A stretch of DNA of 64,000 bases from a virus. Taxonomy: Duplodnaviria; Caudoviricetes. The notes below the pieces were generated by a model. It was not told where the DNA came from. It made no database searches and was given only the letters and a program-made list of their open reading frames with translations. Positions 6,046 to 56,884 of the stretch are shown here, one piece after another. Numbering within the stretch: the stretch's first letter is position 1; every line of letters starts with the position of its first letter. Position numbers and translations under genes: made by a program. The stretch is from positions 6,448 to 70,447 of IMG/VR virus record IMGVR_UViG_3300020557_000009. One strand, written 5' to 3'.

Positions 6046-8670
6046 CTATGTTTCTACTGAAAGAATCAAATCATTTTCAGCAATAATCTCGTCTAGTGTT
6101 ACTTCTGTTGCAACCGCATCGTAATCAACATTCAATACCACCAATTCTTCATTATTTGCAGTTATTGTAAAGGCAGAATTTACAGTCAGTAATGTATCGC
6201 TAATGATTGAATTCACCATGCGAATCTCTGAGTTTACGGCAATCCATGTGTTTGCGCCAATAAAATCAAGATTGGCTGCCTTAGTAAATTTAGTACCTGT
6301 TCCAACAACAAAAATGGTGCTGTTAACATTAACAGTACCAGAAAGTGTTCGAATATTTTTAGGTACCGTTAATGTGTTCATTGTCACATTATTGGCATCT
6401 AATTCATTTAGTTTATTTAGCTCTGCATAGGATTTAAATCCAGCAGGATGTAAGAGTTCTTTAAAGATTTTTTTATACTTGCCAAACTCAATTTCCGATG
6501 ATAACAAGTAAGAATAGTTAATGTAATAATCACGACCTTGTAATTTTCTGTCGGAAGATGAAAGAATTGAATCTGAAGAAGTCCATCTTCCGGCCAATTC
6601 TTGCAATGTTGGACTGAGTGTTGCATTTGCTTGAGCCGTTCCATCTCCAATTGAAGTCAAAACAATTTGAGGTGTGGTACGAATACCTTTACCTGGATCA
6701 AGAATTGTGATTTCTTGGATTTCACCAGCACGACCAGTACCACGGGGAAATAGATTTTCTCCATCACCCATAATTGTCGTAACGGCTATGTTCGCACTTA
6801 TTCCAAGTGTAGAACTTACAGTAATTGTTGGAAGTTTGTCGTTAGTGTATCCTTGACCACCTATCAAATATCTTCCCAAATGTCTAACTGGTCTATTTGT
6901 TAGAATTGAACCGAAGCTTGTATTTACATTAAGTGAAGTATTTGAAGCAATTGATACCACAGTTCTTGTATTAGAACCAATCATAATTTTATCGCCAACA
7001 ATTAGTTCTGTTTCAAACAATGTTTCATAACCTTGAACCATTACATTACTTGCAGATGTTACACTTGCGTTTCCAGTGATTTTTGATGGAACAAATTTTA
7101 CTTCTGTAATTGTTCCTAATGCAGAAACATTTGTAACCTCGGCCGCAGCACCAAGTCCAAAACTCATTGGTTTGTTGGTAAAAACAAGTTCATCACCAAC
7201 TGCGTAATCTATGCCTCCGTCAGTAATTATTAGTTTACCTAAAGAACCAAAAGTATCTATTTTTACGATTGTGTTGGTGGTTGTATTTGCAATTGGAACA
7301 ATGTCAACAATCGCTGGGTCTGCATTTAGTGTTGGTGTTGTTGTTACTGCTAATTCAGAAATAAGAACTTGAACATTACTAATTTCACCAATAGTGGTGT
7401 AAGAAATGTTTGATAGTGCTTGTGAAATAACAGTATTTACATTTGCAACTGTATCGCCAGAAAGACCCCAATTTAAATTGTAGATGATATTATTTGCTGG
7501 GTCAATATCTGAAATTACATCTGAAAAAATGGTATAACTATTTGGTGTATTAGTACCTGTTGTATTAACTGCACCTACGGCAAAAAATAATTCTTCTTCA
7601 GGAATACCTATTGCACGAACATTGGCTGCAACTTGAAATCCAGCACCACCATCACGAATTATTACTTGATTAATTTTACCACTAAATGTTTTAGAGATAA
7701 ACGCTTTTGGTTCTCTCTCAAAAGTAGGAACAATAATACTAATAGGATCACCAACATTATAGTTTGCACCACCATCAAGAACAGTAATTGTTAATAATGA
7801 AGAAAATGCTCTTGCACGAAGATATATTAATGTATCATCATTTGCAATAATATCAAATAAAATTGCTTCACCAATTGTAAAATCACTAACAACAGTTTTT
7901 GAATTTACATAAAATGCAGTAATTTGTTCATTGTTTATAGTTTCAATCTCTATTTCTTCAATTAATGCAGTTGCACCAGAAATTAAACCAGTTATTTTTC
8001 TATTTTTAAATATTTCTATATTGATGTTACGATAAAATACTTCAATCTCTGAATTGTTTGCAGGTGCAGTATAAAAATAAAGTTTGTTTATTTCTTTACG
8101 AACAAAATAATTAGATGTTGCAATTAAAGAACCATTCACATAAACTGTAATGGTTGTATCTAATGCCGAATTAAAAGGTACAAGATTGAATTCTTTTTTA
8201 GTTCCATTTCCAGTATAGAAACTTGAAATGTCTTGAGTTACCTTAATAACCTCATCTCTTTTCCATTTACCATCAGATGCTCTTAGAACATCATTTTTAG
8301 GATACTTAACTTCAAGTTCTTGCCCAAATAACATTCTGAACAATAACTTAAACGAGTTCTCAGAACCTTTTGCTAAGTAAAGAGGTAAAACATTTTTAAT
8401 TAAAAACGCTTTATCAACCTCAACATCTTTAGATACTAATGAGGCATATGTTGCAAAAAACTGTTCTTCAAAATCATCAATTGAATCGTCAACATCAGAT
8501 AGATTTCGAAGGTCTTTGGCTCTTTGAGTTAAATCATTGAGTTGAGTACCTTGTTTAGTTTCAAGATATTCGTAATATGCTTCTAAAAAAGAAATGAATA
8601 ACGGATACTCTTCCCGAATAAATTCAGGAACTTGGCGATTAACAAGTAAAGAAGTTTTTAAATCAGACAT
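6046..8670 (-). CDS. gp7: Baseplate wedge protein gp7-like
   Basis: LVNRQVPEFIREEYPLFISFLEAYYEYLE, KGSENSFKLLFRMLF, YPKNDVLRASDGKW, C-terminal LQGRDYY..YSY and LHPAG; follows gp6. Confidence 0.75.
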   Translation of the reverse strand: MSDLKTSLLVNRQVPEFIREEYPLFISFLEAYYEYLETKQGTQLNDLTQRAKDLRNLSDVDDSIDDFEEQFFATYASLVSKDVEVDKAFLIKNVLPLYLAKGSENSFKLLFRMLFGQELEVKYPKNDVLRASDGKWKRDEVIKVTQDISSFYTGNGTKKEFNLVPFNSALDTTITVYVNGSLIATSNYFVRKEINKLYFYTAPANNSEIEVFYRNINIEIFKNRKITGLISGATALIEEIEIETINNEQITAFYVNSKTVVSDFTIGEAILFDIIANDDTLIYLRARAFSSLLTITVLDGGANYNVGDPISIIVPTFEREPKAFISKTFSGKINQVIIRDGGAGFQVAANVRAIGIPEEELFFAVGAVNTTGTNTPNSYTIFSDVISDIDPANNIIYNLNWGLSGDTVANVNTVISQALSNISYTTIGEISNVQVLISELAVTTTPTLNADPAIVDIVPIANTTTNTIVKIDTFGSLGKLIITDGGIDYAVGDELVFTNKPMSFGLGAAAEVTNVSALGTITEVKFVPSKITGNASVTSASNVMVQGYETLFETELIVGDKIMIGSNTRTVVSIASNTSLNVNTSFGSILTNRPVRHLGRYLIGGQGYTNDKLPTITVSSTLGISANIAVTTIMGDGENLFPRGTGRAGEIQEITILDPGKGIRTTPQIVLTSIGDGTAQANATLSPTLQELAGRWTSSDSILSSSDRKLQGRDYYINYSYLLSSEIEFGKYKKIFKELLHPAGFKSYAELNKLNELDANNVTMNTLTVPKNIRTLSGTVNVNSTIFVVGTGTKFTKAANLDFIGANTWIAVNSEIRMVNSIISDTLLTVNSAFTITANNEELVVLNVDYDAVATEVTLDEIIAENDLILSVET

Positions 8671-30743: not shown

Positions 30744-30876
30744 AACTTTTCACTTTATCAATATTACGAATATCAGAGATTCTTTTTCTTTGTAACGAAT
30801 TACCTAACCAACGAAATTTGGTACACAAGGTACACTTACAAACTCGTTTTGATTTTTTTCTTTTGTAATTTGCCAT
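30724..30876 (-). CDS. Small basic Cys-containing protein
   Basis: MANYKRKKSKRVCKCTLC, 50 aa, overlaps next gene start. Confidence 0.5.
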   Translation of the reverse strand: MANYKRKKSKRVCKCTLCTKFRWLGNSLQRKRISDIRNIDKVKSYEDLHQ

Positions 30877-30879
30877 AGA

Positions 30880-31253
30880 ATTCTTGCAGAGTGATTGGGT
30901 AATAAGGTACACTCTGCGAAACCTCATCTATCCTTAAGCGGCTAGAGCAAATCTTTCGTCATTTGCGTTTACTTTGTTTTGATTTTTACGCCTTGTCTGA
31001 CGATTCTCCAGTTTTCTACTCATTGCCCTGTCGAGACCAGGTCACCCCCATCAAAAAAAGACATGAACCAAAATCAAAATTGTTAATAGTGTGATTACTA
31101 TTACTTCATATGGTTTCAATCATATCTCCTTTTGGTGGAGGTGTCGGGAATCGAACCCGAGTCCAGAACACCTTTCAATTACCTTCAACGAATTAGGTGT
31201 GATGGTCAGCTTTCGCTTTTGCTACCGAATACTCGGTTCGTACCACCACATAA
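30880..31253 (-). ncRNA. ssrA: Circularly permuted (two-piece) tmRNA
   Basis: Acceptor piece ends GGGTTCGATTCCCGACACCTCCACCA at 31133; coding piece starts GGGGGTGACCTGGTCTCGACAGGG at 31049; stem GGGGGTG/CACCTCC has G3-U70; tag GCAAATGACGAAAGATTTGCTCTAGCCGCTTAA (ANDERFALAA) at 30966-30934; outer ends approximate. Confidence 0.9.
31051..31119 (-). CDS. 22-aa hydrophobic peptide in tmRNA intervening segment
   Basis: AGGAG, 6 nt, TTG start; MKPYEVIVITLLTILILVHVFF, TGA. Confidence 0.5.
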   Translation of the reverse strand: MKPYEVIVITLLTILILVHVFF

Positions 31254-48243: not shown

Positions 48244-50010
48244 TTACCTGTTATATTGAGAATTAATCAACGCATCATGTCGTTGGTCACTAGGTCCAAA
48301 CATTCCTCTACCCAAATTTCTATTATCAACATTTACTTGACCTTTATAGATTTGTTCAGTTTTATAAAAAGGTTTGTCAACCATTATTGTTCTACTGTAT
48401 GCATCAAAACCGGGAACAAAAGACATTGCCTGAAGAACTACATTTTGAACTGCAATTTGTTGTTCTAATGATGCAGACTTACCCATGTTCTCAGCAAGAT
48501 TTTTTCCATCTTCAACTGCCTTTGATTTAGCGGCCGCTTCTCTTTTCTCTTGCATTTCTTGACGAGCAGTTTTTGGTTGGTCTTTAGAACCGGATTGTGA
48601 AGATGGTTCTTGTGAAGAACCAGATTTAGCATTATCTTGTTTTTCTTGTTTTCTTTCAGAAACGACTGCCGCTGATTGTTGTGCAGTTTGTTGACTACCA
48701 CCACTTGGTTGCGTTAATTGAACTGGTGCAGCAGGTGAAGCCGCTGATGTTGTTGCAGTTGTTGGTGATGCAATTGCTTTATCGACATTACTATCACCTG
48801 TTTTTGAAACTGTTCCTTCTGAACTAACACTATTTGTTGGAGCGGTAGAAGCAATGACTCCTGCGGTTGCAACTGTCGATGCGATACCTTGTTGTTCTAA
48901 TACCATTTTCTGTGCATAAGCCTGTGCATAGTTTGGACATTGTTTATCATATAGTCCGTTTAAGTTACATTGTTGTGTAAAATAAGCGGCCGCATAACCT
49001 GGACATTCTGAATTGTATAGAGGATTTGCCGTGCATTGTTGATTGAAATATGCAGTTTGATAACCAGGACAATTAACCGAATAAAGAGAATTTAATGAAC
49101 ATTGTTGATTAAAATATGCTTGTTGGTATCCTTCACATGTAGTTGAATAGAGTGGATTAATTGAACATTGGTATGTGAGATATGTGGCAGCATAACCAGG
49201 ACAGTTTGGACTGTATAATGAACTAATTGAACATTGTTGAGTAAAGTATGCCGATTGATAACCTGGACAAGATACATCATATAAAGAATTTGCTGAACAC
49301 ATAGCCTGAGTGTAACCAGAACATGTTGGTGAAGATAATGGGTTTGAAACACATTGGTCACCAGGCGTATTATTAACAGACCAATTATTCAATACACCCG
49401 CAGGAATACCTGTGCCAAAATAAAACTTTTGCATTTGGCCAAGTGAAATATCACCACTAATACCTGCGGCAACTTGTTGGTTTTGAATATTGATTAAATC
49501 ATATGTTGCACCAATAAAACCTGTAGGACGAATCTCTAAACTAAAAGTGTTTAGATTATTCATATTACTAATTTCTGCAATATTGTTCCAAAAATATTTC
49601 TGATATGTTGTGGTACCTTCGGTTCTAAATGTGGAACCTGCAACAGGATATAAATCTGTCCACAATGGTGCAATCATAAAATTGAACTGTGGTCCTAATT
49701 GTGGGTTATTTGGAACCAAATCTAAACCTTGACAACAATACGACCATTGGCCAGGGTTATATGGTTGATTTGGAATTGGTGCTAACGGGTCTAAAAACGA
49801 AACAACTCCATTTGAGTGCATCCAAGAGTTTGTAAATGTCCTACCGTAAAATGGAAAACCAAATTGAAGTGGAACATGCACATTTGTATCATCATAAAAA
49901 GTTGGATTAGTAATTACAGGTGATTGAGCATTAGAGTATGAGAATGAACAAAAGAATAGCACCACCAATGCCCCAAATTGACTTGCTATCTTTTTCAGGC
50001 TTCTGTTCAT
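48244..50010 (-). CDS. Secreted protein with NIDO-like N-domain and 22-aa Cys repeats
   Basis: Signal peptide; VPLQFGFPFYG....NG.VSF...IAPLWTDL; repeats CxxxxLYxxxCxGY. Confidence 0.6.
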   Translation of the reverse strand: MNRSLKKIASQFGALVVLFFCSFSYSNAQSPVITNPTFYDDTNVHVPLQFGFPFYGRTFTNSWMHSNGVVSFLDPLAPIPNQPYNPGQWSYCCQGLDLVPNNPQLGPQFNFMIAPLWTDLYPVAGSTFRTEGTTTYQKYFWNNIAEISNMNNLNTFSLEIRPTGFIGATYDLINIQNQQVAAGISGDISLGQMQKFYFGTGIPAGVLNNWSVNNTPGDQCVSNPLSSPTCSGYTQAMCSANSLYDVSCPGYQSAYFTQQCSISSLYSPNCPGYAATYLTYQCSINPLYSTTCEGYQQAYFNQQCSLNSLYSVNCPGYQTAYFNQQCTANPLYNSECPGYAAAYFTQQCNLNGLYDKQCPNYAQAYAQKMVLEQQGIASTVATAGVIASTAPTNSVSSEGTVSKTGDSNVDKAIASPTTATTSAASPAAPVQLTQPSGGSQQTAQQSAAVVSERKQEKQDNAKSGSSQEPSSQSGSKDQPKTARQEMQEKREAAAKSKAVEDGKNLAENMGKSASLEQQIAVQNVVLQAMSFVPGFDAYSRTIMVDKPFYKTEQIYKGQVNVDNRNLGRGMFGPSDQRHDALINSQYNR

Positions 50011-50013
50011 CTG

Positions 50014-50532
50014 TTACTTTAAAGTTTCGGTTGCTTTATCTAAATTCACAACGGGCGGGATTACTGCATAATTGCCAATTGCTTTTTTATCCACATTATC
50101 TAAAACACCTCTTTTTCTCCATTCTTCTTTGGCCTGTTCGCCAATTTTACCTTCAACAGGACAAGGTGTTCCAGCCGCTAACATAGCAGCGAACACTCGT
50201 TCATCTTGACATAAGTTTGCAACAGCTGCAACTTTCATGCCCATGTCAAATAAGTTTTTGGAAAGTTTGATTCTTTCGCAATTCATATCTCGCATCGTAC
50301 CACCCATGGAGATACCAAGAATCTGCGTTTGAACTGCACCAGATGCCGCTACTGCACAAACATCGTTATTGATGGTCGTAATAGCGGGCGCCACAGCAGT
50401 AGGTGGCGGAGACTTGATAGTAGTCTCGGAAGTTGAATTTGTGGTACTTCTACTTGTTGAATCTGTAACGATGGGTTGAGCATGCGTTACACCAACCACA
50501 ACCATTGCAATTGCGGCCAATAGGTATTTCAT
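50014..50532 (-). CDS. Secreted Cys-containing protein
   Basis: Signal peptide; DVC, GISMG...D.NCERIKLSK.L..MGMKVAAV..LCQD.RV..AM..AGTPCP. Confidence 0.65.
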   Translation of the reverse strand: MKYLLAAIAMVVVGVTHAQPIVTDSTSRSTTNSTSETTIKSPPPTAVAPAITTINNDVCAVAASGAVQTQILGISMGGTMRDMNCERIKLSKNLFDMGMKVAAVANLCQDERVFAAMLAAGTPCPVEGKIGEQAKEEWRKRGVLDNVDKKAIGNYAVIPPVVNLDKATETLK

Positions 50533-50636
50533 TTTTTTATTTTTCCTAGGTTGTTTTACATACTATAAACCACAGAAAAAATATAAACCACTAATATTCT
50601 ATTTAGTTGGACTACATTTCATAATGTCAAAAATAT

Positions 50637-50711
50637 TGGTGGGCCAGGTGTGAATTGAACACACACTCAAGCGATTATGAGTCGCCTGCTTTACCATTAA
50701 GCTACTGGCCC
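50637..50711 (-). tRNA. tRNA-Ile2(CAT), lysidine type
   Basis: GGCGACTCATAATCGCT arm like bacterial ileX; encoded CCA. Confidence 0.8.
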
Positions 50712-50729
50712 GAACTTGAATTGATTTGT

Positions 50730-50805
50730 TGGCCCGGCTGGCAGGAATCGAACCCACATCGGACGCTTTAGAAGAGCGTTGCCTTATCCATTAGACCACA
50801 GCCGG
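50730..50805 (-). tRNA. tRNA-Arg(TCT)
   Basis: ACGCT-CTTCTAA-AGCGT; CCA. Confidence 0.9.
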
Positions 50806-50810
50806 TTATT

Positions 50811-50891
50811 TGGTGCCCCTAATCGGATTCGAACCGATAGTTATGACACTCCTTTTGAGAGAGCCGCCTTTACCAATTTGGCCATAGGGGC
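50811..50891 (-). tRNA. tRNA-Leu(CAA)
   Basis: GCTCT-CTCAAAA-GGAGT; CCA. Confidence 0.85.
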
Positions 50892-50896
50892 ATTAA

Positions 50897-50979
50897 TGGT
50901 GCGGATGGACGGAATCGAACCGTCAAGCCGAAGCGAGAGATTTTAAGTCTCTTGTGTTTACCTATTTCACCACATCCGC
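50897..50979 (-). tRNA. tRNA-Leu(TAA)
   Basis: AGAGA-CTTAAAA-TCTCT; CCA. Confidence 0.9.
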
Positions 50980-51032
50980 ATTGTATCGTATTATATACAA
51001 AAACTATATGATTTGTATATAATGTGTTACAT

Positions 51033-51109
51033 TGGTACCCAAGGAGAGATTCGAACTCTCAAACTACGGCTTCTAAGACCGCCGACTTTACCAATTTGTC
51101 CACTCGGGC
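51033..51109 (-). tRNA. tRNA-Leu(TAG), short variable loop
   Basis: GCGGT-CTTAGAA-GCCGT; CCA. Confidence 0.85.
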
Positions 51110-51114
51110 ATATT

Positions 51115-51190
51115 TGGTGCAACCTCCAAGAATCGAACTTGGTTCATCGGTTCTTCAAACCGCTGCTATAACCACATCAGCTAAGGTTGC
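51115..51190 (-). tRNA. tRNA-Phe(GAA)
   Basis: Anticodon loop TTGAAGA; CCA. Confidence 0.9.
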
Positions 51191-51191
51191 A

Positions 51192-51266
51192 TGGTGCATC
51201 CTGATGGAATCGAACCACCGGTATCCGTCTTGTAAGGGCGGCGTTTTACCATTAAACTAAGGATGC
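51192..51266 (-). tRNA. tRNA-Val(TAC)
   Basis: Loop CTTACAA; CCA. Confidence 0.9.
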
Positions 51267-51267
51267 G

Positions 51268-51341
51268 TGGGTTGAACCGGGGAATCGAACCCTCTCTACC
51301 TGTTTCACAGACAGGTGTGCGACCACTACACTAGGAACAAC
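51268..51341 (-). tRNA. tRNA-His(GTG), imperfect acceptor/T stems
   Basis: CCTGT-CTGTGAA-ACAGG; G-1:C73; two U-U mismatches. Confidence 0.75.
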
Positions 51342-51347
51342 ATTGAT

Positions 51348-51421
51348 TGGAGCGGCTACTGAGAATCGAACTCAGGACAGGAGATTGGAAATCTCCAGTT
51401 TTACCACTAAACTACAGCCGC
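51348..51421 (-). tRNA. tRNA-Gly(TCC)
   Basis: GGAGA-TTTCCAA-TCTCC; CCA. Confidence 0.9.
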
Positions 51422-51425
51422 AATT

Positions 51426-51499
51426 TGGAGCGGAATGTGAGAATCGAACTCACGACTAAACCTTGGCAAGGTTTCGTTTTACCATTAAACTAATCCCGC
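51426..51499 (-). tRNA. tRNA-Gly(GCC)
   Basis: AAACC-TTGCCAA-GGTTT; CCA. Confidence 0.9.
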
Positions 51500-51654
51500 T
51501 TATTTTTTTCCTTAACTAAAGGGTTATCTTCAATACTCATATCATACAAACCGTGTTCTTGTGCAAAGTCTGTAAGTTTTTGCAAGGCATCAAGAACACA
51601 ATCTTCGGTGGATAAAAAGTCCTGATAATCTGTTTTTTCTTTTTCTAGTTTCAT
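51490..51654 (-). CDS. Small acidic protein whose stop lies inside tRNA-Gly(GCC)
   Basis: Not in ORF track; MKLEKEKTDYQDFLSTEDCVLDALQKL...KNKRD, 54 aa; start overlaps upstream stop. Confidence 0.45.
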   Translation of the reverse strand: MKLEKEKTDYQDFLSTEDCVLDALQKLTDFAQEHGLYDMSIEDNPLVKEKNKRD

Positions 51655-52121
51655 GCTACTTTTAATCCTTTCAATCTGTCTGCTGCATACGATGCCGCAA
51701 ACGCTTCTGGTTTAACTAAAGGTATTACATTACATGTTCCACGAATGTAACCAATTGCTTCTTGAATCACACAATTTGAACCATGCATTTCACTTGGGTT
51801 AATATCCAAATGAACTTCCACATATCTATTATCCAAAACATCCGCAAGTTTTAAATATAATTCGGAAACTTTGTAAACTTCATTCATTAATCTATATCTA
51901 GGTTTATTTTGTTTTTGGTCGTAGTCTCTTTCACGGACAACTTCACCAAATAATTTACAACCATTGTTACCATTTATATGAACAACAATAGCGGTGATGT
52001 AATCTGCATACCAAACTTTATTTACCTTAATACGCTCTGAATCACAACCAATATAAATTTTGGTTTCAGGTGTTTGTGCTTCGATGAAAGATTTAACTTC
52101 CTCTAAGTCTAACTTACGCAT
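51651..52121 (-). CDS. RNase H-like YkuK/DUF458 family protein
   Basis: IYIGCDS, TAIVVH, RL..EV, EVHLDIN, KP.A.AAS..AD. Confidence 0.75.
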   Translation of the reverse strand: MRKLDLEEVKSFIEAQTPETKIYIGCDSERIKVNKVWYADYITAIVVHINGNNGCKLFGEVVRERDYDQKQNKPRYRLMNEVYKVSELYLKLADVLDNRYVEVHLDINPSEMHGSNCVIQEAIGYIRGTCNVIPLVKPEAFAASYAADRLKGLKVA

Positions 52122-52145
52122 GATTACTCACTTTCTTTTTAAAAT

Positions 52146-52219
52146 TGGCACCCCGCTAGGGACTCGAACCCCAACCAACGGTTTTGGAGACCGCTATGCT
52201 GCCATTACACCAGCGAGAT
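52146..52219 (-). tRNA. tRNA-Trp(CCA)
   Basis: GCGGT-CTCCAAA-ACCGT; CCA. Confidence 0.9.
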
Positions 52220-52224
52220 ATGAA

Positions 52225-52683
52225 CTACTTTATTTCATTTACTTTTTTCTGTATTTCAGAATGTGGGACTTTTAAAAAAAATCCAGGACTTTTATTTCCT
52301 ATGCCACTATCGTCAAAAAAATTATCAAATGAAATTCGGTATTTTCGAAAATCAACATCTACCGTTTTATATGCTCCAATTGTAATTACATATTGTGGCA
52401 TTTTTAAACCATTCTTTTGTTGATATTCTAAAACTTGTTTAACTGCAACTGCACCTAAACTGTAACCATACAATTCATATTCACCTTGAATGTTTCGAAT
52501 GTGTTTTAACGATTCATTTACTTTTAGTGAACTGAATATAATTGGTTTTAAATTTCTTTGTTTTGCATATTCTTTAAATGCAACTTCATCAAAAACTTCA
52601 TTCTTACCACGAAAACCAATAATGTCATTTGCATGACATTGTAACGCATAAAAGAATAAAGATAAAAATAAAATTTTTTTCAT
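52225..52683 (-). CDS. Secreted alpha/beta-hydrolase-like protein
   Basis: Start MKKILF at 52683 with signal peptide; nucleophile elbow GYSLG. Confidence 0.55.
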   Translation of the reverse strand: MKKILFLSLFFYALQCHANDIIGFRGKNEVFDEVAFKEYAKQRNLKPIIFSSLKVNESLKHIRNIQGEYELYGYSLGAVAVKQVLEYQQKNGLKMPQYVITIGAYKTVDVDFRKYRISFDNFFDDSGIGNKSPGFFLKVPHSEIQKKVNEIK

Positions 52684-52695
52684 AATAGTAATTTT

Positions 52696-52770
52696 TGGTA
52701 GCCATGGACAATTTCGAAATGTCGACCTATCGCTTATCAAGCGATTGCTCTTCCTCTGAGCTACACGGCT
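52696..52770 (-). tRNA. tRNA-Ile(GAT)
   Basis: ATCGC-TTGATAA-GCGAT; T-arm GACAT-TTCGAAA-TTGTC; CCA. Confidence 0.85.
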
Positions 52771-52831
52771 AAAACTTTCTTAAATACAACCACAATAGAA
52801 ACATAATGAAAATAACTGGAATAATAGCCAT
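52769..52831 (-). CDS. 20-aa hydrophobic peptide
   Basis: AAGGA SD; MAIIPVIFIMFLLWLYLEKF; stop overlaps tRNA-Ile 5' end. Confidence 0.45.
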   Translation of the reverse strand: MAIIPVIFIMFLLWLYLRKF

Positions 52832-52848
52832 TATGTTTTTCCTTTAAT

Positions 52849-52925
52849 TGGCACGCCGTGAAAGATTCAAACTCTCAACCTTAGGGTCCGTAGCCCTACG
52901 CTCTATTCAATTGAGCTAACGGCGT
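52849..52925 (-). tRNA. tRNA-Arg(ACG)
   Basis: TAGGG-CTACGGA-CCCTA; CCA. Confidence 0.9.
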
Positions 52926-52931
52926 ATTGAT

Positions 52932-53005
52932 TGGTGGAGGATGAGAGAATCGAACTCTCAATCTCGGCTTGCAAAGCCGATGTTATCCCATTTAACTAAT
53001 CCCCC
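52932..53005 (-). tRNA. tRNA-Ala(TGC)
   Basis: TCGGC-TTTGCAA-GCCGA; G3-U70; CCA. Confidence 0.9.
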
Positions 53006-53206
53006 AATAAGTTGTAAGCTACGATTTCCACATCGCCCTTACATGAGTTGCACACCCTGTCACCATGTTTTGTTTCCTCAGTAGTTATGGTTCTACTCAG
53101 CGGTTCGAGCTCCCTATGTTGGTGGGCACCTTTCTTAACGGTTGACCGCCCCCGGTTATTGTCGCATAACGAGCGGCAGTAATATCGCTTACTGCGGACG
53201 GGATTT
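53006..53206 (-). ncRNA. Candidate structured ncRNA between tRNA-Pro and tRNA-Ala
   Basis: GC-rich 200-nt spacer; hairpins GCAGTAA/TTACTGC and GTTAT/ATAAC. Confidence 0.45.
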
Positions 53207-53283
<77 letters not shown>

Positions 53284-53290
53284 ATGAAAT

Positions 53291-53366
53291 TGGTGCTGGA
53301 GAAAGGATTCGAACCCTCGACCGCCTGATTACAAATCAGGAGCTCTACCAACTGAGCTACTCCAGC
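53291..53366 (-). tRNA. tRNA-Thr(TGT)
   Basis: CCTGA-TTTGTAA-TCAGG; CCA. Confidence 0.9.
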
Positions 53367-53372
53367 ATTGAT

Positions 53373-53448
53373 TGGCTGTCTAGGCAGGGCTCGAACCTGC
53401 GACCAAATGATTAACAGTCATCTACTCTACCAACTGAGCTACTAGACA
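53373..53448 (-). tRNA. tRNA-Asn(GTT)
   Basis: GATGA-CTGTTAA-TCATT; CCA. Confidence 0.9.
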
Positions 53449-53455
53449 ATAAAAC

Positions 53456-53529
53456 TGGTTGCGGGTGATGGAATCGAACCACCATCTGAAGCTTATGAGA
53501 CTTCTGAATTACCGTTACTCTAACCCGCT
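53456..53529 (-). tRNA. tRNA-Met(CAT), initiator-like
   Basis: Unpaired 1:72 (A:A); lacks the three G-C pairs of canonical fMet anticodon stem; CCA. Confidence 0.7.
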
Positions 53530-53536
53530 ATAAACT

Positions 53537-53611
53537 TGGCGACCCGTAGGAGAATCGAACTCCTATATTCCGCTAGACAGGCGGATATAATAACCACTAT
53601 ATGAACGGGCC
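53537..53611 (-). tRNA. tRNA-Asp(GTC)
   Basis: TCCGC-CTGTCTA-GCGGA; CCA. Confidence 0.9.
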
Positions 53612-53696
53612 AATATAGAAACACATTCTTGGATTCTCGTAAAAGTAATCCATGACGCCGGCCGTCATTATGTGTTTGAATGTGTTTTTATATTGG
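53610..53696. repeat. Inverted-repeat-closed spacer Lys/Asp
   Basis: 18 of 19 bp arms 53610-53628 and 53678-53696. Confidence 0.8.
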
Positions 53697-53768
53697 TAGG
53701 TGCGGAGAATTTCGAAATCTCGACTTACCGGTTAAAAGCCGGTTACTCTGCCTCTGAGTTACACACCT
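53694..53768 (-). tRNA. tRNA-Lys(TTT)
   Basis: ACCGG-CTTTTAA-CCGGT; T-arm GAGAT-TTCGAAA-TTCTC; CCA. Confidence 0.85.
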
Positions 53769-53770
53769 TC

Positions 53771-53846
53771 TGGTGGTGATGGAAGGAATCGAGCCTTCGA
53801 CCTTTTGCGTATGAAGCAACTGTTCTACCGACTGAACTACATCACC
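53771..53846 (-). tRNA. tRNA-Met(CAT), elongator-like
   Basis: TTGC-TTCATAC-GCAA; fully paired acceptor stem; CCA. Confidence 0.8.
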
Positions 53847-54018
53847 ATAATTGAGAATACTGCCGTCCGTTTAAGACTATAAAATCGTCCCTATATTCTC
53901 ATCCTAAACCCACCACAGGTTTCTTCCTCGGATAATGAGGTGGACTAATACAGGTTGGTACACCCTCGGCAGTCAGGTAGATGGTTAGTCGTCCTTGCTT
54001 TCGGATTCTCAATTATGG
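53845..54018. repeat. Inverted-repeat-closed spacer Tyr/Met
   Basis: Perfect 14-bp arms CCATAATTGAGAAT / ATTCTCAATTATGG. Confidence 0.8.
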
Positions 54019-54101
54019 TGGGTGCCCTAGGATTTGAACCTAGAAGGCCGAAACAACGGATTTACAGTCCGCCCCCGATACCATTACGGGACTAGACACC
54101 C
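54016..54101 (-). tRNA. tRNA-Tyr(GTA)
   Basis: GCGGA-CTGTAAA-TCCGT; long variable arm; CCA. Confidence 0.85.
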
Positions 54102-54278
54102 AAAATTCAGAGCACTAAAGCGAAAGACTGCTATTACATGATGCCGAAGCGGTACTAACGCATCAAACCTTTGCTCAACTCATTTCTGAGACGGTCGTGC
54201 ATGCCGTTTAGAACGGCCCGTTTTATTATTATGATATAATCTACCAAGCATATTGTGCTTGTATCACAGTTAGTTATA

Positions 54279-54426
54279 CCATATCAAAGTGTTATCTACC
54301 AATTTGTGAACAATGTAGCTAACACTCACAAGCGAATAGCGGTTATATCAGGACCTTTTCCTCGCACAGTTAGGCCCGCATAGTCATGGCGTCCCATGAC
54401 GATACCCTGATAACACTTTGATATGG
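54279..54426. repeat. Inverted-repeat-closed spacer 3' of tRNA-Glu
   Basis: Perfect 18-bp arms CCATATCAAAGTGTTATC / GATAACACTTTGATATGG. Confidence 0.8.
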
Positions 54427-54499
54427 TACACCTAGGGGGAATCGAACCCGCCGTTTATGCCTTGAAAGGGCATCGTCCTAACCGTTAGACGATAGGTGC
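54424..54499 (-). tRNA. tRNA-Glu(TTC)
   Basis: ATGCC-CTTTCAA-GGCAT; CCA. Confidence 0.9.
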
Positions 54500-54510
54500 A
54501 AAATCAATTC

Positions 54511-54526
54511 AAATTTTTAATGAACA
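54511..54526 (-). promoter_or_regulatory. boxA-like antitermination element
   Basis: TGTTCATTAAAAATTT, resembling rrn boxA TGCTCTTTAACAATTT. Confidence 0.55.
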
Positions 54527-54532
54527 ATACGA

Positions 54533-54585
54533 ATTATACACTAACTGGCCGAACTGTCAAGTCTGTTTGTTGCCAGATTACAACA
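54533..54585 (-). promoter_or_regulatory. Internal tRNA-cluster sigma70 promoter with TGTTG-N8-CAACA dyad
   Basis: TTGACA-16-TATAAT at 54533-54560; dyad 54568-54585. Confidence 0.7.
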
Positions 54586-54611
54586 CTACTTTTGTTTTCA
54601 ATTTACTAACA

Positions 54612-54688
54612 TGGAGTGGGTGACAGGATTCGAACCTGCATAATACGGATTTGCAATCCGCTACCTCGCCTTTCAGTTGCACACCCAC
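54612..54688 (-). tRNA. tRNA-Cys(GCA)
   Basis: GCGGA-TTGCAAA-TCCGT; U73; CCA. Confidence 0.85.
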
Positions 54689-54693
54689 ATATT

Positions 54694-54781
54694 TGGCGGA
54701 AGATATCAGAATCGAACTGATCCACCCATTTCTGAATGACGGTTTAGCAAACCGCTGCCTTAACCACTCGGCCAATCTTCC
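54694..54781 (-). tRNA. tRNA-Ser(GCT)
   Basis: GCGGT-TTGCTAA-ACCGT; long variable arm; CCA. Confidence 0.9.
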
Positions 54782-54860
54782 ATATTAAAACACACTATCT
54801 CTCTTTATTGTCGGAGCCCACGGTGAAGAACTCGCTCCTCGATAATGTGTTTTGATATGG
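54780..54860. repeat. Inverted-repeat-closed spacer Ser/Ser
   Basis: 14 of 15 bp arms 54780-54794 and 54846-54860. Confidence 0.75.
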
Positions 54861-54947
54861 CGGAAGCGGTGAGATTCGAACTCACGGAACATTTCTGTTC
54901 GCTAGTTTTCAAGACTAGTGCCATAAACCGGACTCGGCCACACTTCC
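54858..54947 (-). tRNA. tRNA-Ser(TGA)
   Basis: CTAGT-CTTGAAA-ACTAG; long variable arm; CCA. Confidence 0.9.
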
Positions 54948-54950
54948 ATT

Positions 54951-55024
54951 TGGCAGGCGCATCAGGGCTCGAACCTGAAATAACGGATTCAAAGTCCGCT
55001 GTGTTACCATTACACTATGCGCCA
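54951..55024 (-). tRNA. tRNA-Gln(TTG)
   Basis: GCGGA-CTTTGAA-TCCGT; CCA. Confidence 0.9.
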
Positions 55025-55036
55025 ACAAAACAACTC

Positions 55037-55052
55037 AAATTTTTAAAGAACA
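55037..55052 (-). promoter_or_regulatory. boxA-like antitermination element
   Basis: TGTTCTTTAAAAATTT 12 nt before tRNA-Gln. Confidence 0.6.
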
Positions 55053-55083
55053 AAAAACCCTAGATTTTTTAGGTCTAGGGTTT
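55046..55083 (-). terminator. Intrinsic terminator in tRNA-operon leader (attenuator)
   Basis: AAACCCTAGA-9 nt-TCTAGGGTTT followed by TTTGTTCTTT. Confidence 0.8.
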
Positions 55084-55119
55084 GTGATTTTCTACTAAGA
55101 AAACTAATTACACAAACCC
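55078..55119 (-). promoter_or_regulatory. Antiterminator hairpin
   Basis: GGGTTTGTG/CACAAACCC 9 bp plus inner TTTTCT/AGAAAA; 3' strand overlaps terminator 5' arm. Confidence 0.7.
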
Positions 55120-55230
55120 AACCCGTCCAATAAAGCCTTTATTATCACTTCTTGGTGAGCGATAAGCGGCCTGCCATGTCTCATGGAGCATGGAACAAAG
55201 CGTTGTCGATAAATGTATTAAGTTATTCAT
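55108..55230 (-). CDS. 40-aa leader peptide containing all 20 amino acids
   Basis: Below ORF-track cutoff; MNNLIHLSTTLCSMLHETWQAAYRSPRSDNKGFIGRVGFV, TAA. Confidence 0.65.
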   Translation of the reverse strand: MNNLIHLSTTLCSMLHETWQAAYRSPRSDNKGFIGRVGFV

Positions 55231-55239
55231 AATAGTGTT

Positions 55240-55268
55240 ATTGTATCAAAGTATTTAGTAAAAGTCAA
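55240..55268 (-). promoter_or_regulatory. sigma70 promoter of tRNA operon with embedded late-like CTAAATA
   Basis: TTGACT-17-TACAAT; CTAAATA at 55252-55258. Confidence 0.7.
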
Positions 55269-55303
55269 GCTCATTTTTCTTGTTTGCCTAACTTTTTTCA
55301 TTG

Positions 55304-55606
55304 TTACCTGATGGTTTCTTGTGGCATAGCATGGTTCAGCGTGCCATCCATCTTGCGATAGAGCAACTTGTCATCTTCAATGGTTGCATAACCATCAAAA
55401 AAGTAAGAATCCAAACTTTGTAGTCGTAGCAAATCACTTTCAGCAAACTCGCTGATGTTCGCTACTTGCTGTCCTAACCACTTTGAAACATTGTAGTCAG
55501 AGTTTGCGACAATAAACTTCGCTTCTTCTTCATTTTTTGCTTCAACCAAGTGGATTTCGTAAAATGTGTTTACGGTTTCGACCACAAATTTCTTTTTTTT
55601 GTTCAT
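55304..55606 (-). CDS. Hypothetical protein
   Basis: KFVVETVNTF...LVEA; start uncertain. Confidence 0.55.
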   Translation of the reverse strand: MNKKKKFVVETVNTFYEIHLVEAKNEEEAKFIVANSDYNVSKWLGQQVANISEFAESDLLRLQSLDSYFFDGYATIEDDKLLYRKMDGTLNHAMPQETIR

Positions 55607-55622
55607 TTTCTTTTTTGCCACA

Positions 55623-55898
55623 TCATTCTCCAAGTGTAAATTCAATATTTTTTACGGAATCAAAACGGAAACTTCGCCAATCTTGTTTTTCTAAGTCAAA
55701 AACAGCAAGTGCTTCGTCAGATTGTGATTTCCCGGTGTTTTTTGGTGATTTTTCACTTGGGATTTTTGACTCCGCAAGTGTGCAAACCATTTTTCGCTCG
55801 GTTCCGTCTTTTTTAGTGAAAACAATCGTCACTTTTTCATCACGGAGTAGTCCTCGCAACCACTCACGACCCTCTTTTGTATCAACTTCACTTGCCAT
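55623..55898 (-). CDS. DUF2693/WYL-like SH3 beta-barrel protein
   Basis: VFTKKDGTERKMVCTL, VFDLEKQDWRSFR. Confidence 0.7.
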   Translation of the reverse strand: MASEVDTKEGREWLRGLLRDEKVTIVFTKKDGTERKMVCTLAESKIPSEKSPKNTGKSQSDEALAVFDLEKQDWRSFRFDSVKNIEFTLGE

Positions 55899-56469
55899 TT
55901 TCATTTTCCTCATCAATTTCTTCTTCTTCGTCCCATTCAGCACGCTCTTCAAGCATTTCTCTGAGATTCCATTCATCAACAATATCTTCAGGAATGTTAT
56001 CTAACGATTCTAGGTCAGAATATTCATAAGATTCATCAGAACCATACTCATAACGACCAACAAATGCCATTCCTTCTTCATGGTAGTTACCAAAAATAGT
56101 CATCGAATCATCTTGCGAAATAAATTCATACAATGCAACAGGTGGTCCCCATGGTGAATCAAACCAAAATTGAATGCTCAGGTTATCTTCATCATAATCC
56201 TCAACACGCCAATCATTTGCATCACAATTCCATTTGCAACCCCAATTATCAACCGACCAAGAATACCAATCACCATATCCGTATTTCTCAATCAACTGTT
56301 CATTGGTGTGGTCGAATGAAACATTACCAACATCCTTTAATTCTTGTGGACATGGCAAGAAAAAATCAAACCAGTCTTTACCATTGTTTGCGTCCAGAAA
56401 AGCTTCGAATTCACGAACCTTCTCTTTAGAAGCGACCATTTCAAATGTGTTACTGCACCAATTTGGCAT
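55888..56469 (-). CDS. YubB/DUF1281-like ferredoxin-fold protein
   Basis: MPNWCSN, WY.W...NWG.KW, F.SPW.PP, Y.E.GM.F.G. Confidence 0.65.
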   Translation of the reverse strand: MPNWCSNTFEMVASKEKVREFEAFLDANNGKDWFDFFLPCPQELKDVGNVSFDHTNEQLIEKYGYGDWYSWSVDNWGCKWNCDANDWRVEDYDEDNLSIQFWFDSPWGPPVALYEFISQDDSMTIFGNYHEEGMAFVGRYEYGSDESYEYSDLESLDNIPEDIVDEWNLREMLEERAEWDEEEEIDEENENGK

Positions 56470-56485
56470 AATATAATCTCACTTT

Positions 56486-56884
56486 CTATGTGTTTGCAAT
56501 TGATTCCGCATAGGTCTTTAGTTTTTTAATTGTAACATAAGACAATGCTCTTTTGAGGTACTCTTCCCACCATTTGCCTGATTTCTCAGTTTTCTTTAAA
56601 ACACAACCATACAATCCGGCACCTGTCAACCCTTTAATATAGGTTTCAGGATCACCAAGAATCGCCTCATAATGGTCGTCAAATATCGGATTGCCTTCTT
56701 CATCTCTACGAAAAAAAGCAATATGATACATGTTACCAATTTTATTTCCTTCAATTGGTGTTGCACCTGCATATTCGGTATTTGCTTTAAACTCCCAACA
56801 ATGAATTACCAATTCATCATCTTCCTCACCTGGTAAAAAATAAATGCCATCATATTCATTTGGCTGCAATTTAACATCACCCAT
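56486..56884 (-). CDS. Hypothetical protein
   Basis: Start MGDVK at 56884. Confidence 0.55.
   Translation of the reverse strand: MGDVKLQPNEYDGIYFLPGEEDDELVIHCWEFKANTEYAGATPIEGNKIGNMYHIAFFRRDEEGNPIFDDHYEAILGDPETYIKGLTGAGLYGCVLKKTEKSGKWWEEYLKRALSYVTIKKLKTYAESIANT

Follow-up and report, generated by a model that had tools for sequence, protein, structure and literature searches.

Why should a set of phage transfer RNA (tRNA) genes be preceded, directly behind a promoter, by a 40-codon open reading frame (ORF) in which every one of the 20 amino acids is present and no codon is repeated in a run? This question is raised by a stretch of viral DNA of 64,000 nucleotides (nt), referred to here as the window, which corresponds to positions 6,448 to 70,447 of the IMG/VR virus record IMGVR_UViG_3300020557_000009 and is part of a 70.4-kilobase (kb) contig with a completeness estimate of 43%. 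The contig codes for baseplate and tail proteins of a myovirus, 27 tRNAs, and one transfer-messenger RNA (tmRNA), and DNA nearly identical to the window can be found in many lake-water metagenomes. A first-pass annotation of the window had proposed that the ORF is the leader peptide of an attenuator in front of a complete tRNA set, and the promoter, the 40-codon ORF with its 20 amino acids and 34 codons, the 9-base-pair (bp) antiterminator, the terminator, and tRNA-Gln were all found where it had placed them. Sequence comparison and folding thermodynamics lead us to regard the locus, with somewhat more confidence than doubt, as a ribosome-mediated transcription attenuator gating the phage tRNA operon, in which finished translation would lead to termination and slow decoding to read-through. 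Two parts of the description go beyond that annotation, namely an rrn-type boxA after the terminator and a three-segment design in which an untranslated transcript is expected to read through. The leader, the terminator, the boxA, and the tRNA array all lie on the minus strand of the window, and the features of the leader region are as follows.

55268-55240, minus strand: sigma-70 promoter P1, TTGACT, 17 nt, TACAAT, with a TG extension giving the extended -10 element TGATACAAT (55248-55240); the -10 ends 9 nt before the ATG.
55230-55108, minus strand: leaderless leader ORF, MNNLIHLSTTLCSMLHETWQAAYRSPRSDNKGFIGRVGFV, 40 codons and TAA, with 20 amino acids and 34 distinct codons.
55174..55193, minus strand: hairpin H1 inside the ORF, CCATG...CATGG, 7 bp in most relatives.
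55133..55172, minus strand: hairpin H2 inside the ORF, outer stem AGGCC/GGCTT, inner stem TCGCT/AGYGA.
55119-55111, minus strand: segment 1, GGGTTTGTG, formed by the last three sense codons and serving as the 5′ strand of the antiterminator.
55087..55104, minus strand: apical hairpin of the antiterminator, GTTTTCT/AGAAAAT, directly 3′ of the stop codon.
55086-55078, minus strand: segment 2, CACAAACCC, which supplies the antiterminator with its 3′ strand and also contributes to the 5′ arm of the terminator.
55083-55052, minus strand: intrinsic terminator of 10 bp, with the 5′ arm AAACCCTAGA (55083-55074), a 9-nt loop, the 3′ arm TCTAGGGTTT (55064-55055), and T6.
55052-55037, minus strand: boxA-like element, copy 1, TGTTCTTTAAAAATTT, which starts on the last T of the terminator T-tract and ends 12 nt before tRNA-Gln.

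To place this leader among related sequences, relatives were retrieved with the upstream gene of 113 amino acids, a DNA motif, and a peptide profile from IMG/VR, JGI/ENA metagenomes, and a protein collection. Removal of duplicates left 41 loci, with 36 full leaders and 34 complete peptides that are distinct; the peptides are 40–48 amino acids long, and their identity to the window peptide drops to 46%. All are from uncultured sources, mostly lake and freshwater metagenomes and IMG/VR contigs, and no DNA or protein match to the leader was found among the GenBank phage records, so that no cultured phage in that collection carries it. One order is common to all leaders, with a promoter (TTGAC(A/T)-17-TAxAxT) followed by the ATG, the ORF, the terminator, an A/T-rich motif (the boxA), and a tRNA, which is Gln in most relatives and Ser or Glu in a few. 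The peptide matched no Pfam or PHROG family, and no precomputed Pfam domain is listed for its relatives. A cmscan search of 50000-56500 against Rfam at E values of up to 1 returned only tRNAs and chance matches, with nothing in 55025-55270, T-box and Trp/His/Thr/Leu leaders included.

The amino-acid content of the leader is seldom matched by other sequences of its length. All 20 amino acids are found in 0.5–0.7% of random 40-codon ORFs of the same base composition, a frequency that the first-pass annotation had left to be computed, and in 0.25% of 40-codon sections from the phage's own long genes; among the 86 ATG ORFs of 38–50 amino acids in the window, only the leader ORF holds all 20. At least 34 distinct codons are reached by 0.5% of random ORFs and by none of the 2430 sections of real genes. 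Of the 26 decoding classes in the phage tRNA set, 25 are represented by a codon of the leader, the sole gap being TTG (Leu-CAA), as had been noted from the window alone. Coverage of at least 25 of the 26 classes is seen in 0.09% of random ORFs and in 0 of 2430 real-gene sections, for which the maximum is 23.

Across the family, 32 of the 34 distinct peptides keep all 20 amino acids, and the remaining two are without Val only. In a tree-aware simulation of 2000 runs, in which each column kept its number of changes and its own repertoire of residues on an unchanged tree, 17.1 ± 5.2 of 34 peptides had all 20, with a maximum of 31, and none of the runs reached the observed 32. Among 15 representatives of <80% identity, 13 have all 20, where a column shuffle gives 7.8 (P 0.001). 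With Val left aside, the other 19 residues occur in 34 of 34 peptides, and also in 34 of 34 when only the part before segment 1 is counted, where ∼15 would be expected. Those most often lost under the null model (Pro, Asp, Glu, His, Lys, and Cys) shift position between lineages and never disappear, and Ile likewise changes position without being lost. Several clades have Leu in place of the Pro of SPR, with Pro found elsewhere in each; one clade that loses the Cys of LCS has Cys in PKCEN or near the C terminus; and Asp and Glu exchange places in two clades. W, Q, Y, F, H, D, and E are single-copy in 65–94% of peptides. At the level of codons, both Arg, both Ser, both Gly, and both Ile classes are each found in 33–37 of 37 leaders, with the rare ATA codon in 33 of 37, and of the Leu classes TTA and CTN are each found in 36 of 37 and TTG in only 4 of 37. 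No codon runs can be seen (34 distinct among the 40 codons in the window, with a family mean of about 1–5 copies per amino acid), and from these comparisons the all-amino-acid content appears to stand in for the regulatory codon run of an attenuator.

The reading frame itself has been held open. Over ∼302 substitutions on the family tree, 0 nonsense codons are seen against ∼16 expected (P about 1e-7), internal indels of the leader ORF are multiples of three, and the other two reading frames contain stops in every member. The median ratio of nonsynonymous to synonymous substitution rates (dN/dS) is 0.77 and changes at the three codon positions number 91, 99, and 112, a near-equality that is unlike the evolution of a folded functional small protein. 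Such a substitution pattern would be expected of a leader that needs to be translated while its exact sequence matters little. The start of the frame is equally regular, with the promoter form TTGAC(A/T)-17-TA(T/C)A(A/C)T in 38 relatives and the end of the -10 lying 6, 7, or 9 nt before the ATG in 38 of 38. With only 6–9 nt between the two, the predicted transcript start is at or within ∼3 nt of the AUG and there is no room for a Shine–Dalgarno sequence, i.e. the message would be leaderless; the near-leaderless start that had been entered as a caveat for the window holds as well. On the 3′ side of segment 1, stop codons can be found in two frames, at 55104-55113 (minus strand) and at homologous positions in relatives (e.g. 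GTGTAATTAG and TATAGTTAG), so that a 1-nt indel in the G-run would alter the last codons and still leave the end of translation within a few nt of the same place.

The 3′ end of the ORF is joined to the terminator by a 9-bp complementarity between GGGTTTGTG and CACAAACCC. Because segment 2 belongs both to the antiterminator and to the 5′ arm of the terminator, the two folds are mutually exclusive, and their predicted energies in the window are nearly equal (−48.7 kcal/mol for the antiterminator and −47.4 kcal/mol for the terminator). On folding, the nascent RNA up to segment 2 takes the antiterminator form, and the terminator forms when the ORF is masked, as it would be by a ribosome that is terminating. 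Segment 1 is always inside the ORF, with the stop codon located from 2 nt before to 16 nt after its 3′ end and 18–27 nt ahead of the 13–14-nt stretch that contains segment 2.

Conservation of these helices was examined across the leaders. For the terminator, H1, and H2, 97.5% of cells are paired, compared with 24–54% when the partners are slid, and the covariation score of the three is 0.226 against 0.117 in shuffles (0 of 500). The terminator is present in 36 of 36 leaders, with compensatory changes at 4 of 10 pairs; H1 has such changes at 2 of 6 pairs (CG/UA and UA/CG); and in H2 the inner stem shows CG to UA compensation in 3 sequences and the outer stem never varies. The duplex of segments 1 and 2 is found in 27 of the 27 distinct sequences tested, at −10 to −18 kcal/mol, and eight compensating variants are seen, including matched insertions on both strands (GGGTCTTGTG/CACAAGACCC, GGGTTTTGTGA/TCACAAAACCC, GGGTTTTTTG/AAAAAACCC, and GGGGTTGT/ACAACCCC). 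Binding of segment 1 to its own segment 2 amounts to −14.2 kcal/mol, compared with −10.8 kcal/mol for the segment 2 of other lineages. The MAFFT alignment of the antiterminator is out of register at the 3′ end, and pairs were therefore counted in an end-anchored register. There, 87.6% of cells are paired, compared with 72.8 ± 1.8% after shuffling (0 of 1000), and double changes number 36 against 15.8. The first-pass annotation had looked to related phages for the same features beneath a divergent peptide, and the diverged relatives bear this out: under a drifting peptide, the ORF, its all-amino-acid content, and its high diversity of codons are retained, as are both competing hairpins, which show compensatory changes.

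An upstream 1:2 partner for segment 1 was also sought. Its pairing with the N-terminal region (−10.4 kcal/mol) is no better than that of shuffled sequence (−10.6 kcal/mol), which led to the rejection of a classical four-segment (trp-like) design, and H1 and H2 do not sequester segment 1. With no upstream partner, the element has a three-segment design, and an untranslated transcript should read through, unlike that of the trp leader. The locus thus contains an open short ORF behind a promoter, an intrinsic terminator before the regulated genes, and a competing antiterminator within reach of a ribosome, and it has neither a regulatory codon run nor the 1:2 pairing by which untranslated transcripts terminate. 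The palindrome AATAAAGGCTTTATT was considered as a protein operator or hairpin and set aside, its symmetry being broken in two relatives (L057 and L022) by conservative amino-acid changes. The terminator hairpin (55055-55083) also scores as a plus-strand terminator with 13 pairs including G-T, a call that arises from the loop-size rule of the scan; it may be active in both directions, and no converging plus-strand gene is evident near it.

Directly after the terminator, the element TGTTCTTTAAAAATTT (= UGUUCUUUAAAAAUUU) agrees with the E. coli rrnH leader (TGCTCTTTAACAATTT) at 14 of 16 positions, and some relatives, which read GCTCTTTAAAAATT or GTTCTTTAACAATT, agree with it at 15 of 16. The rrn boxA is 5′-UGCUCUUUA-3′ with the spacer acaauuua, and the boxA-spacer of lambda nutL is cgcucuuaaaaauuaa (PMC2724277); the segment of the E. 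coli rrnH leader that was matched contains both the rrn boxA and the spacer. A boxA-like element is found in 36 of 36 leaders. The 70-kb contig has only two copies, each just ahead of tRNAs, and many relatives have a second copy 500–1200 nt downstream, mostly 500–750. In 32 of 36 leaders the boxA lies 0–27 nt after the terminator with no sigma-70 promoter between them; there, the boxA and the first tRNAs can be transcribed only by read-through of the terminator, and this dependence argues that the terminator is regulatory and not an insulator. We read the boxA as a putative NusB–NusE site that would give the polymerase resistance to Rho over a long untranslated array, as in rrn operons. Two other assignments were rejected. 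A general phage promoter is not supported for the post-terminator motif, given its two copies, both before tRNAs, its position downstream of a consensus -10, and its match to the rrn boxA. A sigma-70 promoter picked out by eye in the boxA region (TTGAGT-18-TGTAAT) would start inside tRNA-Gln and was dismissed as non-functional. Beyond copy 1 of the boxA, the following features were found.

50637..55024, minus strand: tRNA array, 27 genes for all 20 amino acids, with tRNA-Gln starting at 55024.
54560-54533, minus strand: internal promoter, TTGACA-16-TATAAT, a 12/12 match to consensus, ahead of tRNA-Glu.
54526-54511, minus strand: boxA-like element, copy 2, TGTTCATTAAAAATTT, before tRNA-Glu, beginning 6 nt after the -10 of the internal promoter.

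ARAGORN finds 26 of the tRNAs in the array. The earlier count of 27 holds, as the remaining gene, tRNA-Tyr(GTA), is present in the sequence and as a weak cmscan hit. This tRNA-Tyr(GTA) (54018-54101, minus strand) has a long variable arm, and its cmscan match is a sub-threshold, tRNA-Sec-like one of 34.4 bits. The first four tRNAs of the array (Gln, Ser-TGA, Ser-GCT, and Cys) are without a promoter of their own.

From these sequences we infer that the ORF is translated, that the position of the ribosome chooses the fold, that H2 pauses the polymerase, that the boxA binds NusB/NusE, and that the supply of tRNA or amino acids is the signal. In the proposed mechanism, P1 would start the mRNA at or within ∼3 nt of the AUG, and a 70S ribosome would load on this 5′ AUG. 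The two tiers of H2 are conserved and U-rich sequence comes after them; by analogy with the trp leader, H2 is a candidate RNA-polymerase pause hairpin and may hold the polymerase until the ribosome arrives. When decoding is fast, the ribosome would be on segment 1 or on the stop codon before segment 2 emerges; segment 2, left free, would pair with segment 3, transcription would stop at the U-tract, and an RNA of ∼175–180 nt would be released. A slow codon lying upstream of about four codons before segment 1 would instead allow segment 1 to pair with segment 2 as the polymerase advances, and the resulting antiterminator would block the terminator. The polymerase that reads through would then transcribe the rrn-type boxA, pick up Nus factors, probably become resistant to Rho, and enter the tRNA genes.

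Because every amino acid occurs ∼1–3 times and codons for 25 of the 26 decoding classes are present, a deficit of almost any charged tRNA would hold up the ribosome and lead to more tRNA synthesis, and the outcome would be a negative-feedback loop on decoding capacity. Possible causes of such a shortage are starvation, a mismatch in codon usage with the host, host anticodon nucleases, and other defenses that deplete tRNA. Our opinion is evenly divided on whether the leader is a general decoding-capacity sensor of this kind, in which a shortage of any charged tRNA would step up transcription of the complete set of tRNAs that the phage carries. Such a sensor would be a case of homeostatic, demand-driven attenuation of tRNA genes coupled to rrn-style antitermination and conserved in a freshwater myovirus lineage.

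Traces of the locus were found in four lake metatranscriptomes, as low-depth contigs that give no ends, strand, or level and may include DNA carry-over. One contig corresponds to 55208-55001 and runs from inside the ORF across the terminator and the boxA into tRNA-Gln; another run gave 55207-55057 and 55047-54862. In two studies, contigs end at 55207 and 55208, a point ∼22 nt into the predicted transcript. Within 54300-56300, contigs cover the leader and the first tRNAs and not the 330 nt upstream of the promoter; 55238-55572 is uncovered in all four runs, a low-depth gap that proves nothing alone. The contigs are a weak hint that the leader is expressed.

Several observations weigh against the attenuator reading, among them the low depth and possible DNA content of the metatranscriptome contigs. 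Leaderless mRNAs are often poorly translated in proteobacteria, and with poor translation the switch would be mostly ON. Val is located in segment 1 or ≤4 codons from it in 19 of 27 leaders, where a stall should favor termination, and is absent altogether from two peptides. Val is therefore probably not sensed, in keeping with the caveat raised for the window, and it is the only residue ever missing. With a four-codon margin for the ribosome, two further leaders lose Pro, one Ile, and one Cys from the sensing zone. The internal promoter, which had been suspected of acting independently and which is conserved, serves, together with its own boxA, 23 tRNAs from Glu onward, leaving only Gln, Ser, Ser, and Cys wholly dependent on the switch. 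Between the terminator and the boxA, three lineages (4 of 36 leaders) have an additional strong sigma-70 promoter, and three loci with the same upstream gene (L005, L007, and L009) were found to have no such leader. Finally, the center of the peptide (WQADYR and ENxGF) is nearly invariant, as are most of its synonymous sites, which the all-amino-acid model alone does not require. This invariance points to the RNA structure of H1 and H2 or to a function of the peptide; because the center is fixed at synonymous sites also and coincides with H1 and H2, RNA structure explains it better than a function of the peptide would, although the peptide may have a role.

The exceptional loci differ among themselves. 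The extra promoter has the form TTGACA-17/18-TAxxxT and is found in L023 (1683-1770), L024 (636-760), L042, and L045, of which the last two have the weakest antiterminator (−10.2 kcal/mol, with an internal loop); sequence comparison here hints that the switch decays where the tRNAs acquire their own promoter. In L005 (2400-3100), the upstream gene is 78% identical, there is no leader, terminator, or boxA, tRNA-Thr lies 5 nt past the stop of the gene, and only four tRNAs come after. In L007 and L009, there is a gap of 975 nt.

Three other explanations of the locus were weighed. The first is a translation-coupled attenuator whose signal is the overall capacity of ribosomes or of initiation, or else how far infection has progressed (for instance through leaderless 70S initiation), and not the supply of individual charged tRNAs, the even amino-acid content then going unsensed. 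The leaderless start would suit such a device, as would a three-segment design that reads through whenever no ribosome arrives in time; the placement of Val, and in a few leaders of Pro, Cys, or Ile, outside the stall-sensing zone is also in its favor, as is the fact that only four tRNAs rely solely on the switch. We nevertheless consider it unlikely, as it leaves unexplained why, despite drift, the peptides retain the full 20 amino acids (or 19) and almost every isoacceptor class far above the tree-aware null, and why codon diversity is far above that of real genes.

The remaining two explanations do away with either the regulation or the translation, and each seems to us distinctly improbable, to about the same degree. 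An independent small gene would make a functional peptide of 40–48 amino acids from its own promoter and terminator and would merely adjoin the array, with the tRNAs transcribed from other promoters or by leak. It would account for the invariant core (W-Q-A-x-Y-R and E/D-N-x-G-F), for the hypothetical protein that gene callers annotate in several metagenomes, and for the three lineages with a separate tRNA promoter. It is at odds with a dN/dS of ∼0.77 and near-equal change at the three codon positions, with the absence of any Pfam or PHROG family match, and with a core that is fixed at synonymous sites too and coincides with the covarying H1 and H2; a covarying antiterminator that competes with the gene's own terminator would have no purpose in a plain gene, nor does a plain gene explain a boxA after the terminator without a promoter in 32 of 36 leaders. 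The RNA structure could also be the whole of the element, i.e. a non-coding leader or riboswitch-like RNA in which a trans-acting factor (a protein, a tRNA as in T-boxes, or a small molecule) sets the fold and the open frame is incidental. The highly structured RNA, its covarying helices, and the conservation of the central sequence at the nucleotide level are compatible with this, but a frame that stays open over ∼302 substitutions against ∼16 nonsense codons expected, in-frame indels, an ATG fixed at the start of transcription, and a segment 1 that is always inside the ORF are not, and no Rfam match, T-box included, was found at E values of up to 1. Ribosome-mediated attenuation therefore remains the explanation that we prefer.

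Two further features of the window may be recorded. A 156-amino-acid ORF (51651-52121, minus strand) with a match to the Pfam family RNaseH_like (PF04308, E 2e-18) lies within the tRNA array between tRNA-Gly and tRNA-Trp and could encode a tRNA-processing or mobile-element protein. The tmRNA call (ARAGORN, starred; 30843-31225, minus strand), with the tag ANDERFALAA, is distant from the array.

Leader-peptide attenuators of enterobacteria include trpL, hisL, thrL, ilvL, leuL, and pheL, together with pheM of pheST, and multivalent leaders sense more than one amino acid, Thr and Ile in the case of thr and Ile, Leu, and Val in that of ilv. The phage leader resembles those of amino-acid operons in its short ORF behind a promoter, in a terminator before the regulated genes, in an antiterminator that shares a strand with the terminator, and in the presumed role of ribosome position as the selector, with a ribosome at the stop codon favoring termination. 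It differs from them in having no codon run, all 20 amino acids being kept at ∼1–3 each; in controlling tRNAs and not biosynthetic enzymes or synthetases; and in being leaderless, without a 1:2 anti-antiterminator, with an rrn-type boxA past the terminator, and without a match to any leader in Rfam. T-boxes bind uncharged tRNA directly, without any need of translation, each recognizing one tRNA, and control synthetase and amino-acid genes. As in a T-box, read-through is here proposed to answer tRNA charging through the choice between terminator and antiterminator; unlike a T-box, the phage element has a maintained ORF, and it gave no T-box match.

The likeness to rrn antitermination through boxA and NusB–NusE (rrnTAC) lies in a boxA that is placed in a transcribed leader, downstream of promoters and directly before long untranslated RNA genes. 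Unlike that of rrn, the phage boxA precedes tRNA genes only, its position 3 in the window is U and not C, and no boxB-like or boxC-like elements were identified with it. In mycobacteria, leaderless polycysteine short ORFs are reported to act as cysteine-responsive attenuators (bioRxiv 10.1101/834739). They share with the phage leader a leaderless short ORF as first cistron whose translation acts in cis on downstream expression; they have consecutive Cys codons, sense one amino acid, and precede protein-coding operons, whereas the phage leader has an even content and an intrinsic terminator and antiterminator and precedes tRNAs. Searches of a library of papers for leader peptides or boxA before phage tRNA genes, or for leaders containing all amino acids, found nothing relevant.

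To our knowledge, leader-peptide attenuation is not on record for tRNA genes, and little is known of how phages regulate theirs. A leader selected to contain every amino acid would extend the principle of the trp operon from one amino acid to decoding as a whole. The device is self-contained in ∼230 nt and could be put to use as a small sensor of stress on translation. The presence of a boxA next to it suggests that, for long untranslated tRNA arrays, phages make use of the rRNA antitermination machinery of the host, and, if the sensor reading is true, these phages would gain a feedback loop that supplies tRNA as it is needed, for instance under a host defense that cleaves or depletes tRNAs.

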